Positions 60,945 to 63,321 of a stretch of 64,000 nucleotides of DNA are shown one piece after another. Under the pieces are notes generated by a model that was not told where the DNA came from, ran no database searches, and saw nothing but the letters and a program-made list of their open reading frames with translations. The position numbers were made by a program, and so were the translations under genes. The stretch spans positions 1-64,000 of the IMG/VR virus record IMGVR_UViG_3300037010_001573, one strand, 5' to 3'. Within the stretch, counting starts at the first letter, position 1; each line of letters opens with the position of its first letter. Source of the DNA: a virus (lineage: Duplodnaviria; Heunggongvirae; Uroviricota; Caudoviricetes).

Positions 60945-61670
60945 TTATTTAATTTTTAGTATTTGTGAAATAAAAGCCATAAAATTCAATTCTCTATCAG
61001 CGATAGAGTTATTCTGCCACATGTATTGTGCACCGTGTATAGCAATATCCGCATGGGATGTACTAAATTCTGAAGCACGCTCATACAATCCTGTATATAA
61101 AGGAATAAAATCATTTACATCTGAATCAACTATTTTTTGACGAATGTCAACCCAAGCCGTTTTTGGTTTTGATTTTAATATAACAATAGTATCATTTAAT
61201 ACATCATTTATATTAACAATTAATGTTTTAACATCCAATGTGTTTTTATCGTCAATACATTGTTGTGTAACATTTATTATCTTTCTAATATCAGGGTAAT
61301 ATGAACGTACTATACTTGCTAATTCGGGTAATTGAAAATTAATATCTTCATTTTCTAATATATCAGCAACATGTTTTGCCACTTCTCCCTTTGTAGGAGG
61401 TTCAATATGAAAAGCCTGACATCTACTTATTAAAGGTTCAATTATACGTTCCGCATAATTTGCAGTTAATATGAATCTGGTTTTAGCGGAGTAAGTTTCC
61501 ATAACATTACGTAAAGCAGCTTGTGCTTGAGATGTCATAAAATCACAATTGTGAGTAAGAATATTACCTTTACTTCCTATAAAAAAATTATGATTTTGTT
61601 CAACAGTTAAATCATATACTCTATGAGTTGTTTCTGTTTTCTTTATTGATTTGATTTTTAATATGTCCAT
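60945..61670 (-). CDS. split-intein C-half (41 aa) fused to the clamp-loader gp44 C-extein
   Basis: MDILKIKSIKKTETTHRVYDLTVEQNHNFFIGSKGNILTHN ends in HN then CDFMTSQAQAALRNVMETY...ILTAN...PLISRC, which matches T4 gp44. Confidence 0.7.
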   Translation of the reverse strand: MDILKIKSIKKTETTHRVYDLTVEQNHNFFIGSKGNILTHNCDFMTSQAQAALRNVMETYSAKTRFILTANYAERIIEPLISRCQAFHIEPPTKGEVAKHVADILENEDINFQLPELASIVRSYYPDIRKIINVTQQCIDDKNTLDVKTLIVNINDVLNDTIVILKSKPKTAWVDIRQKIVDSDVNDFIPLYTGLYERASEFSTSHADIAIHGAQYMWQNNSIADRELNFMAFISQILKIK

Positions 61671-63006
61671 CTATTCCTTTGTAAACTTTAATATAAAATT
61701 GTGCATTTCTTTCATCTTTATTATCGTTTTGGTTTATATAATTTATGAGATTATTTTCATTTACCCATATAAATTTATAACCATTATTATTACTCCATTC
61801 AATACCCGCATCCATTTTGATTTGTTGTTTTACAAAATTTCTTCTAGGTTTAAGTTCATATATTATTTTATTAATATCATCTATAAAATCAGGAATATAT
61901 ATTCCCTTTTGTCTTTCATTTTTATAATAAGGTATTTTTAAAGTTTCATATTTTAATTTATTATTAGAAATAAAAAATACAACTTCCCAACTACTTCTAA
62001 AGTTATAAACTTTACCATCAATATAACATAAATTTGAATTATATTTATGATAATTTTTTTGAGGATTAAATTTTCCTTCTAATATATTTTTTATTTGAGA
62101 TTCCGATGATTTTTTATTAGTTGTTTTTCTCTCTTCATCAGTTTGATTTTGTTTCCATTTGGTGGTACTAATTTTGTTATTTTCTCCTATTTTCTTCTTA
62201 TAAATTTTACCTTCTTCTGTTTCTAACCATTTTTTTCTTTTTAAAGAACGTGATATGTTATTTTCAATACTATATTTACTCCCTTTAATATTGGACCAAA
62301 TTTTTTCTTTATAATGTGTTTCACACCAATTAGGTAAATTACATAAACTTCTATCTAATGTTAATATAAAATCTTTTGTAATTTCACAACCACAATGATT
62401 ACACTTATTATTATTTAATATAATCTTTCTGAAATAGAAGTTAAATAATTTTCTAGAAATTGGGTTTAATTTTCTATTTACTAAACTAATGAATTTGTTC
62501 TGTTCATTATATATAATATTATTAAAAGGTGTAATAAAATTGTCTTTTTTTAAAGCTTGTACCCAATCAATGATAAATTTTTCATCATATGAATATTTTT
62601 GAGACCAATATTTTCCTATATTTTCTGTTTTTTCAGATTTTCCCATTATTTATTTTATTATAAATATATGACCTGGGCATTAAATATTAGGAGGTTGGAT
62701 TATGGGATTAAAAATACACATATGTTTTTCTAGTTCAGTTGTTTTAATTACTTTTATATTTCCTTTACCATCAGGTACATACCATTTATGTTTAGGAGTA
62801 CAAATAATAACTTCATTATTTTCAAACTCTATTTCATATGTTTCTCTTTCCCCTTTATCAAATAATTCAAAAGGTTTCCATTCTATTTTGTTAGAATCAA
62901 CATTAAATGATTTTACCAAATCATTTTTATCATCTAAATCTTTAATAGATATATGTTTTATTTCTCCTTTTCGTAAAACTGTAACTAGTGTATTTTCTTC
63001 TAAACA
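61548..63006 (-). mobile_element. split intein with an inserted endonuclease gene inside the clamp-loader gene (fractured-gene arrangement)
   Basis: IntN 62683..63006, endonuclease ORF, IntC 61548..61670. Confidence 0.6.
61621..62646 (-). CDS. free-standing putative endonuclease between the intein halves
   Basis: own ATG; CNHCGC zinc-ribbon-like; IPDFIDDINKIIYELKP resembles a PD-(D/E)xK motif; its 3' end overlaps the IntC start by 50 nt in another frame. Confidence 0.45.
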   Translation of the reverse strand: MGKSEKTENIGKYWSQKYSYDEKFIIDWVQALKKDNFITPFNNIIYNEQNKFISLVNRKLNPISRKLFNFYFRKIILNNNKCNHCGCEITKDFILTLDRSLCNLPNWCETHYKEKIWSNIKGSKYSIENNISRSLKRKKWLETEEGKIYKKKIGENNKISTTKWKQNQTDEERKTTNKKSSESQIKNILEGKFNPQKNYHKYNSNLCYIDGKVYNFRSSWEVVFFISNNKLKYETLKIPYYKNERQKGIYIPDFIDDINKIIYELKPRRNFVKQQIKMDAGIEWSNNNGYKFIWVNENNLINYINQNDNKDERNAQFYIKVYKGIDGHIKNQINKENRNNS

Positions 63007-63321
63007 TTCATCTAATATAATAACCTTAATTGGGTTGAAACTACTTACGGAAGCAAAATCAACAATTTTATCTCTAATAGTATCTATACCTCGTTCATCA
63101 GACGCATTAATATACATCATATCACATTTGATATTTTTTGTAATTAATTTAGCCAGAGTTGTTTTTCCGGTACCGGGTTTTCCAAAAAATAATAGATGGG
63201 GAATATCATTGTTTCCTATACATTTGGAGATGAAGGCTTTTATACCTTCATTCCCAACGTAATCTTCTAATTTTTCAGGTCTATATTTTTCACAAAAAAG
63301 TGAATTATTTATTCCTTTCAT
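62680..63321 (-). CDS. clamp-loader gp44 N-extein (Walker A/B) fused to split-intein N-half
   Basis: EKYRP...FFGKPGTGKTTLAK...DMMYINASD...KVIILDE matches T4 gp44; then CLEENTLV (block A) ... CTPKHKW (block B) and a TAA stop after ~108 aa. Confidence 0.75.
   Translation of the reverse strand: MKGINNSLFCEKYRPEKLEDYVGNEGIKAFISKCIGNNDIPHLLFFGKPGTGKTTLAKLITKNIKCDMMYINASDERGIDTIRDKIVDFASVSSFNPIKVIILDECLEENTLVTVLRKGEIKHISIKDLDDKNDLVKSFNVDSNKIEWKPFELFDKGERETYEIEFENNEVIICTPKHKWYVPDGKGNIKVIKTTELEKHMCIFNPIIQPPNI

Follow-up and report, generated by a model that had tools for sequence, protein, structure and literature searches.

A probable fractured gene in an uncultured T4-like phage: the clamp loader is divided by a split intein with a TnsA-like nuclease gene between its halves

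The clamp-loader large-subunit gene of an uncultured T4-like phage is, with a probability that we put at roughly 85%, a fractured gene, split by an intein and hosting a mobile nuclease gene between its two parts. It lies on the minus strand of a 64,000-nucleotide (nt) stretch of DNA (positions 1 to 64,000 of IMG/VR record IMGVR_UViG_3300037010_001573), called here the window. Two polypeptides would be translated separately: one of 213 amino acids (aa) composed of an N-extein and the amino-terminal intein half (IntN), and one of 241 aa composed of the carboxyl-terminal intein half (IntC) and a C-extein, the IntC starting from its own ATG. The acidic IntN and the basic IntC would associate to build a class-1 HINT fold, in which Cys1, the block B Thr and His, the terminal Asn and the +1 Cys would carry out protein trans-splicing. 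Splicing would yield an AAA+ subunit of 305 aa that carries the junction ILDE-CDF right after Walker B and works together with a gp62-like subunit. The 341-aa TnsA-like PD-(D/E)xK protein encoded between the halves is most likely a homing endonuclease whose targets would be the clamp-loader alleles of co-infecting relatives that have no intein or no nuclease gene, recombinational repair then copying the nuclease gene and both intein halves into them.

The locus comprises three open reading frames (ORFs) with the following parts:

63321..62680, minus strand: N-extein and IntN ORF, 213 aa (105 + 108 aa).
63321..63007, minus strand: N-extein of the clamp-loader large subunit (gp44/RFC-small type), 105 aa, with Walker A GKPGTGKTT, Walker B IILDE and matches to PHROG 168 and Pfam AAA.
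63006..62683, minus strand, followed by a TAA stop at 62682..62680: IntN, 108 aa, with Cys1 in CLEENTLV and block B CTPKHKW, matching positions 2-88 of the Pfam Intein_splicing profile.
62647..62679, minus strand: 33-nt spacer separating the IntN stop from the nuclease ATG, in which lie another TAA in the same frame and the AT-rich motif ATATTTATAATAAAAT.
62646..61621, minus strand: free-standing nuclease ORF, 341 aa.
61675..61680, minus strand: Shine-Dalgarno-like AAAGGA, 4 nt upstream of the IntC ATG.
61621..61670, minus strand: overlap of the nuclease 3' end with the IntC 5' end, 50 nt in different frames.
61670..60945, minus strand: IntC and C-extein ORF, 241 aa (41 + 200 aa).
61670..61548, minus strand: IntC, 41 aa, MDILKIKSIKK...VYDLTVEQNHNFFIG...ILTHN, with blocks F and G and the terminal Asn, matching positions 122-155 of Intein_splicing.
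61547..60948, minus strand, with the stop to 60945: C-extein, 200 aa, with the +1 Cys (CDFMTSQAQAALR), sensor-1 FILTAN, the SRC arginine finger and a match to PHROG 168.

The lengths of the extein and intein parts were counted manually and checked by script. The IntN sequence (CLEENTLV...CTPKHKW, then TAA) adjoins Walker B of the N ORF directly, and the third ORF opens MDILKIKSIKK...VYDLTVEQNHNFFIGSKGNILTHN to continue into CDFMTSQAQAALR...SRC. An earlier note on this DNA had described most of this anatomy. The ORF listing bears out its coordinates, lengths and minus strand; the Walker A and B, CLEENTLV, TPKHKW and HN-end motifs are all present as described, IntC ending THN followed by CDFMT; and the lengths of 108 and 41 aa for the intein halves, like the 50-nt overlap of the nuclease with the IntC start in another frame, are correct.

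Both exteins match a single family. PHROG 168 ("clamp loader of DNA polymerase") aligns its positions 8-109 to residues 6-106 of the N ORF and its positions 109-307 to residues 42-237 of the C ORF; since the two matches abut, the extein halves rejoin exactly. The protein spliced in silico is 305 aa long and matches the archaeal RFC small subunit (E 6.6e-43), ungapped across the junction VIILDECDFMTSQAQAALR (ILDE|CDF), as well as T4 gp44 (3u5z; E 4.4e-30). The claim that both parts align to gp44 contiguously at ILDE/CDFMT thus holds with PHROG 168, with the RFC small subunit and with T4 gp44 itself. All AAA+ motifs are intact (GKPGTGKTT, IILDE, FILTAN, ISRC).

In a syntenic relative, L035, the same gene is uninterrupted and encodes 303 aa. 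Its product and the spliced one are colinear and 77% identical, and the sole difference at the junction is the +1 residue, Ala in L035 and Cys in the window (ILDE|A vs ILDE|C); the insertion point in the intein-free, L035-type allele reads ...GTTGTTATTTTAGATGAA|GCTGATTACATT.... The N-extein is 87% identical to L035 in amino acid sequence with a ratio of nonsynonymous to synonymous substitution rates (dN/dS) of 0.09, and the C-extein 73% identical with a dN/dS of 0.16; these and all other ratios given here are only rough because dS is saturated, at ~1 or more. As estimated, they place both exteins under strong purifying selection. It is hardly credible that the locus is a decaying pseudogene with clamp loading provided by another gene, given these ratios, the intact AAA+ motifs and a layout kept across very divergent phages. 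No second clamp-loader copy is found within the 64-kb window, which is the inspected part of a ~162-kb contig; a copy could lie elsewhere in the genome, and this is the point that speaks for the pseudogene.

The two segments that interrupt the clamp loader are the halves of one intein. The beginning of the Pfam Intein_splicing profile is found on the N ORF and its end on the C ORF, both below the gathering score. When IntN and IntC are joined and searched as a single sequence with phmmer, the best PDB match is the Spl DnaX mini-intein (PDB 7cfv; 3e-8, query residues 30-148), followed by NrdJ-1, gp41-1 and Npu DnaE. A profile of the joined intein compared with solved inteins spans the split point and hits Npu-type DnaE (2e-12), gp41-1 (4e-12) and Spl DnaX (1e-11). 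Together with those of the spliced protein, the E-values of the joined intein exclude a chance origin. A specific kinship with cyanobacterial DnaX inteins, considered because of the best single-sequence match, was dropped: the profile puts DnaX no closer than DnaE and gp41-1, and no specific common origin with DnaX inteins is shown.

The residues expected for class 1 splicing are all present: IntN has C1 and, in block B, T70 and H73, IntC has H40-N41, and the C-extein supplies the +1 Cys. All 20 non-redundant loci keep Cys1, the block B His and (H/S)N|C, and 19/20 keep the block B Thr, locus L029 having Asn instead. IntC aligns with its counterparts in the 19 other loci and with cis mini-inteins. 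The latter came from an exhaustive representative search and interrupt, in one piece and at this same position, full-length clamp-loader proteins of 437-470 aa (P0148, P0149, P0155 and others). The split halves are colinear with these cis mini-inteins and the break falls within a variable loop. IntN has a net charge of -4 and IntC of +2, the acidic/basic polarity described for several natural split inteins. The dN/dS of IntN against other loci is 0.11-0.44, and the intein halves give 0.08-0.44 between loci; every part of the locus has an estimated dN/dS below 1.

The two polypeptides could alternatively assemble non-covalently, the intein serving as a dimerisation module without splicing, as in the intein-less split nrdA of Aeh1. 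Phage genes split by endonuclease genes can indeed work without splicing (reviewed in PMC2988022). We consider this quite unlikely for the clamp loader. Among sequences that are only 30-70% identical, the nucleophiles and assisting residues stay the same (C1, block B His, terminal Asn and +1 Cys, with the block B Thr in all but one locus); the +1 position is Cys in intein-bearing alleles and Ala in the intein-free allele; and, judging from its position in the RFC alignment, an unspliced 149-aa insert after Walker B would occupy the ATPase active site.

The three-ORF organization itself might be the product of sequencing or assembly errors, readthrough or frameshifting in a conventional cis-intein with a nested endonuclease. 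Some observations fit such an origin: the N ORF and the nuclease ORF share one frame here and at four further loci, the proteins P0166, P0184 and P0262 truly fuse N-extein, IntN and nuclease, and changing a single nucleotide would join the nuclease to IntC. The frame of the N ORF through the spacer, TAA-TGC-CCA-GGT-CAT-ATA-TTT-ATA-ATA-AAA-TAA-ATA-ATG, nevertheless holds two TAA stop codons between IntN and the nuclease ATG, and IntC lies in another frame. The split layout is found in ~20 independent assemblies, and more than 100 protein clusters of 200-227 aa stop exactly after IntN. Even the fusions P0166, P0184 and P0262 end at the nuclease stop, leaving IntC separate. The shared frame was also weighed as a sign of readthrough or of a recent in-frame ancestor and rejected; it is not kept across loci, because the other spacers measure 35, 52, 58 or 61 nt or are replaced by small overlaps. 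The broken cis-intein, which the earlier note had named as the outcome that would overturn it, is therefore excluded computationally, as a single ORF would require the removal of two TAA and a frameshift and the layout recurs; we regard it as extremely improbable.

The protein encoded between the halves is an independent nuclease, as had been claimed. It matches PHROG 15427, "endonuclease", with an E-value of 4.5e-18, and 27 relatives were found, several with a precomputed Pfam Tn7_TnsA-like_N annotation. The alignment has invariant R217-S-S-W-E221, D253, E264-x-K266 and K277. Residues E221, D253, E264 and K266 belong to a TnsA-like PD-(D/E)xK core in the carboxyl-terminal part (~aa 205-300, ~61747..62034), and as predicted from the alignment the site is a canonical PD-(D/E)xK. 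The best structural match of the nuclease is TnsA, and Pfam families of the restriction-endonuclease fold match 12-16/17 relatives. The window protein has no match to PF08722 (Tn7_TnsA-like_N) at E up to 0.1; this family matches 12/17 relatives, at best with 4.5e-6. The nearest viral models in BFVD bear names of the type "TnsA endonuclease N-terminal domain" or "NUMOD3". The window nuclease reaches no Pfam gathering threshold, has no GIY-YIG match in Pfam or PHROG and shows no conserved His in its alignment that could be the general base of the EDxHD family. Searched against the PDB, it gives no match as a single sequence and only chance-level matches to I-CreI as a profile, and an exact-sequence look-up returns no record.

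The amino-terminal and central region (~aa 12-200) is confidently modelled, contains a Cys-rich segment and presumably binds DNA. Of the motifs that the earlier note had read in this ORF, PD-(D/E)xK stands and the zinc ribbon is weak, resting on sub-threshold Pfam zinc-finger matches and one nearly invariant Cys. The note had missed that the nuclease is specifically TnsA-like and that the arrangement of the genes was already published (Dassa et al. 2009, PMC2677866). The tail of the nuclease inside the IntC overlap (aa 330-341) is modelled as disordered, with a predicted local distance difference test score (pLDDT) below 50, and the carboxyl-terminal tail is missing in relatives with an overlap of 1-4 nt; for these reasons the overlap looks like a by-product and not like a functional part of the enzyme.

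The three-ORF layout recurs in ~20 independent metagenomic and phage loci. It is present in the metagenome contigs L001/L002, L003 and L004, in 23/25 IMG/VR loci that encode nuclease relatives, at 3495-6240 of LR756500.1 (L008), a 462-kb uncultured phage, and at 124-2336 of JAHFUM010000010.1 (L037), binned as a metagenome-assembled genome of Nitrosarchaeum sp.; the assignment of the latter to this thaumarchaeon may be a binning artefact or a hint to the host. A protein search with the N ORF yields more than 100 clusters (at 90% identity) whose sequences, 200-227 aa long, terminate directly behind IntN. The spacers of other loci measure 35, 52, 58 or 61 nt or give way to small overlaps, and the nuclease overlaps IntC by 1-59 nt in most related loci.

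The distribution of the element is patchy. Intein-free, cis mini-intein, fractured and IntN-nuclease fusion alleles are all found at the clamp-loader site. The fusion state, with N-extein, IntN and TnsA-like nuclease in one ORF, is that of P0166, P0184 and P0262. The intein of P0166 and P0184 is displaced downstream by four residues (DEFDAM|C and DEADML|C; DE[F/A]D[A/M][M/L]|C), which defines a second insertion site. Synechococcus phage S-SZBM1, examined as a candidate intein bearer, was discarded, its clamp loader being an ordinary 314-aa protein. The intein halves share 68-81% amino acid identity between loci, against 41-61% for the exteins that surround them, and the nearest extein relative, L035, is precisely without the element. 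Because the inteins are more alike than the exteins and the nearest relative of the host gene is without the element, the pattern is the one to be expected of a homing or mobile element.

T-even-like phages harbour more distant relatives of the nuclease, which lie beside a split intein within the gene for the terminase large subunit. In Yersinia phage phiR1-RT (L034, NC_019909.1, 1411-4260), g166 ends ...MIYIDE|CVSKDTKV..., g167 is the nuclease and g168 has a long IntC ending ...VESHN|CAFIPNF. In Krischvirus / Escherichia phage TB34 (L007, 1693-4840) the nuclease forms one ORF with the terminase fragment upstream of it. In the records of both phages the annotation of this nuclease does not go beyond "endonuclease" or a part of the terminase.

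These data bear on whether the middle ORF encodes a homing endonuclease at all. It could instead encode a nuclease that serves defence, packaging or recombination, or a relic without activity; among solved structures the nearest is indeed a transposase subunit, TnsA, and not a homing enzyme, and the window protein stays below all Pfam gathering thresholds. This is unlikely in our view, since the active-site residues do not vary and purifying selection acts on the gene, the relatives in 23 of the 25 IMG/VR loci accompany a fractured clamp loader, distant relatives lie in a fractured terminase gene beside another split intein, close relatives of the host gene are precisely without the element, and phage structural relatives carry NUMOD3 modules, typical of phage homing endonucleases. 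Going further, the TnsA-like PD-(D/E)xK proteins might form an uncharacterised phage homing-endonuclease family specialised in the intein-interrupted Walker B sites (hhhhDE|C) of two ATPases, the clamp loader in replication and the terminase large subunit in packaging, a proposal that we advance tentatively and to which we give somewhat less than an even chance.

How the three ORFs could be expressed is suggested by several short motifs. The AT-rich ATATTTATAATAAAAT (62652..62667) lies 5 nt before the nuclease ATG and is found 5' of the nuclease ATG in 9/14 related loci, even where the amino-terminal domains of the nucleases differ. The minus strand of the window has 11 copies of the core of this motif, ATATTTAT, five of them 21-23 nt 5' of ORF starts (62646, 51966, 49686, 46691 and 40692); from this position we infer that it may act as a phage promoter-like element. 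At these five ORFs a recurrent AT-rich motif, ATATATTTAT(A), starts 21-23 nt before the ATG, and similar sequences precede the ORF starts at 59325, 49069 and 47634; it resembles a class of phage promoter. The full 16-nt spacer motif was rejected as a window-wide enriched element (40 matches vs 31 expected). No terminators are predicted between the ORFs. AAAGG or AAGGG is found 3-14 nt 5' of the IntC start in 11/14 loci, which suggests that the IntC ORF initiates independently or by translational coupling. The AAAGGA of the window is encoded by nuclease Lys-Gly codons that are near-invariant in the alignment of relatives; AAGGTT directly precedes the ATG of several other window genes.

The layout has been known since 2009, when Dassa et al. 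(PMC2677866) described "fractured genes" in which a split intein interrupts a phage replication or repair gene and a free-standing endonuclease ORF lies between the halves. Their loci, from Global Ocean Sampling metagenomes, comprise gp41-1, gp41-8, NrdJ-1, IMPDH-1, NrdA-2, DnaE, ligase and terminase, with gp41, IMPDH, DnaE, NrdA, NrdJ, DNA ligase, terminase and one unknown gene as hosts; the spacers are 27-51 nt, the overlaps 6-69 bp and the nucleases GIY-YIG or Vsr-like (PMC2677866). The window shows the traits by which such genes are recognized: colinear host ORFs on the same strand, an IntN followed by a stop, a spacer and an independent ORF, and an IntC in frame with its extein and overlapped by that ORF. 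The 33-nt spacer, the 50-nt overlap, the canonical sizes of the intein halves and the mainly T4-like setting are likewise those of the published loci. It departs from them by its host, a clamp loader, by a nuclease that is neither GIY-YIG nor Vsr-like, and by a phage-specific AT-rich motif in place of the hairpin or TATAAATA, elements frequent but not obligatory 5' of the endonuclease in fractured genes (PMC2677866). A full-text literature search returned no description of a clamp-loader split intein; it covered few subscription journals, and absence there is not proof. The clamp-loader host gene and the TnsA-like family are not known to have been linked to fractured genes before.

Clamp-loader ATPases are known intein hosts outside phages. 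Cyanobacterial DnaX (Pol III gamma/tau) has inteins right after Walker B, and archaeal RFC-S has them at four other sites (Novikova et al. 2016, PMC4760082). The window resembles these cases by its AAA+ clamp-loader host and, for DnaX, by the site immediately after Walker B; the DnaX and RFC inteins differ in being contiguous, cis-splicing and carried by cellular genomes.

The nuclease likewise departs from its closest structural counterpart, the TnsA of Tn7 (PDB 1t0f, 1f1z), with which it shares 11-15% identity: it lacks the TnsA C-terminal domain, has no TnsB or TnsC partners nearby and is found in the setting of a homing element and not of a transposon. The EDxHD (Vsr-like) homing endonucleases, whose prototype is I-Bth0305I and which include phage Hef proteins, require a His general base (PMC3239194). 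The window nuclease is like them in its restriction-endonuclease-like fold, its bipartite organization, its occurrence in phages between split-intein halves and the 11 residues that separate the metal-binding Asp from the following Glu (counted from Asp51/Phe62 of Vsr); it differs in not displaying the composite E, D, H, D site with the His general base. A further parallel is with the fractured terminase loci (the Terminase locus of Dassa et al., g166/g167/g168 of phiR1-RT, and TB34), whose nucleases belong to the same TnsA-like family, with 33-40% identity over the nuclease domain, and whose intein also follows right after the Walker B hhhhDE|C. These loci differ in their host gene, in an intein that is split early (IntN ~41 aa, IntC ~107 aa) and in a nuclease that either counts only 199 aa or is joined to the ORF upstream of it.

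Several points weigh against the reading of the locus as a trans-spliced clamp loader with a homing nuclease. Trans-splicing, nuclease activity and homing are deductions from the sequences. The AlphaFold2 model of the joined intein, computed without an alignment, has a pLDDT of 33 and is uninformative, so that the HINT fold is supported by sequence homology alone. A hairpin 5' of the nuclease ATG is not significant (z 0.29 vs shuffled sequence), and the T4 late promoter TATAAATA, found 5' of the nuclease in relatives L008 and L024, is in the window spacer present on the opposite strand only and not on the coding strand, with no enrichment in the window. The saturation of dS and the partial coverage of the contig, noted above, count on the same side.

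Downstream of the C-extein the gene order continues with two further ORFs:

60725..60943, minus strand: conserved 72-aa ORF between the C-extein and the gp62-like gene.
60270..60722, minus strand: gp62-like small clamp-loader subunit, 150 aa, with matches to PHROG 225 and Pfam Phage_clamp_A.

The gp62-like protein matches PHROG 225 with an E-value of 2.4e-14 and Phage_clamp_A with 1.3e-4 (22.9 bits, below the 27-bit cutoff), and the gene order with this subunit is the same in L001, L004 and L035; in L035 it reads GroES, GroEL, clamp loader, 72-aa ORF, gp62-like, PD-(D/E)XK exonuclease. The Cys-rich 72-aa ORF has 81% amino acid identity to its L035 counterpart and gives weak zinc-ribbon matches only; an ORF of 72 aa also lies downstream of the clamp-loader genes in L001/L002. 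Directly upstream of the clamp loader lies a GroEL-type chaperonin gene (63337-64000, minus strand), of which the window holds the C-terminal part only; the syntenic relatives L001, L004 and L035 have a GroES/GroEL pair at this position. The chaperonin DNA shares ~70% identity with the DNA of phages of Bacteroides and Flavobacterium. Further away, the region 41064-49193 (minus strand) has 20 tRNA genes with 18 anticodons, Gln-ttg and Gly-tcc being present twice each, with small ORFs interspersed. Such tRNA clusters are typical of large T4-like phages. A second upstream motif, ATCTTTATATAAGATTTAAAA, precedes the ORF starts 33457, 32839, 23377, 22890 and 8063 in the 0-33 kb part of the window and may represent another promoter class. 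Nearly identical 40-nt upstream sequences occur in pairs, at ORF starts 10095 and 3439 and at 6428 and 4960, suggesting duplicated gene cassettes or repeated regulatory segments.

The fractured clamp loader has consequences for annotation, as it accounts for the many phage clamp loaders annotated as a pair of short "AAA ATPase" ORFs on either side of an unannotated gene. The natural split inteins of fractured phage genes (gp41-1, NrdJ-1, IMPDH-1) are, to our knowledge, the fastest protein-ligation tools known, and the widespread and diverse clamp-loader split intein, represented by over 100 sequence clusters, offers further pairs that may be orthogonal. The coexistence of intein-free, cis mini-intein, fractured and fusion alleles at one site provides unusually complete material for studying how free-standing nucleases would break inteins and later nest in them. 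If the TnsA-like proteins are such a family of homing endonucleases specialised in intein-interrupted Walker B sites, protein engineering would gain a new natural split intein and the origin of split inteins and of intein-nested endonucleases would become directly testable.

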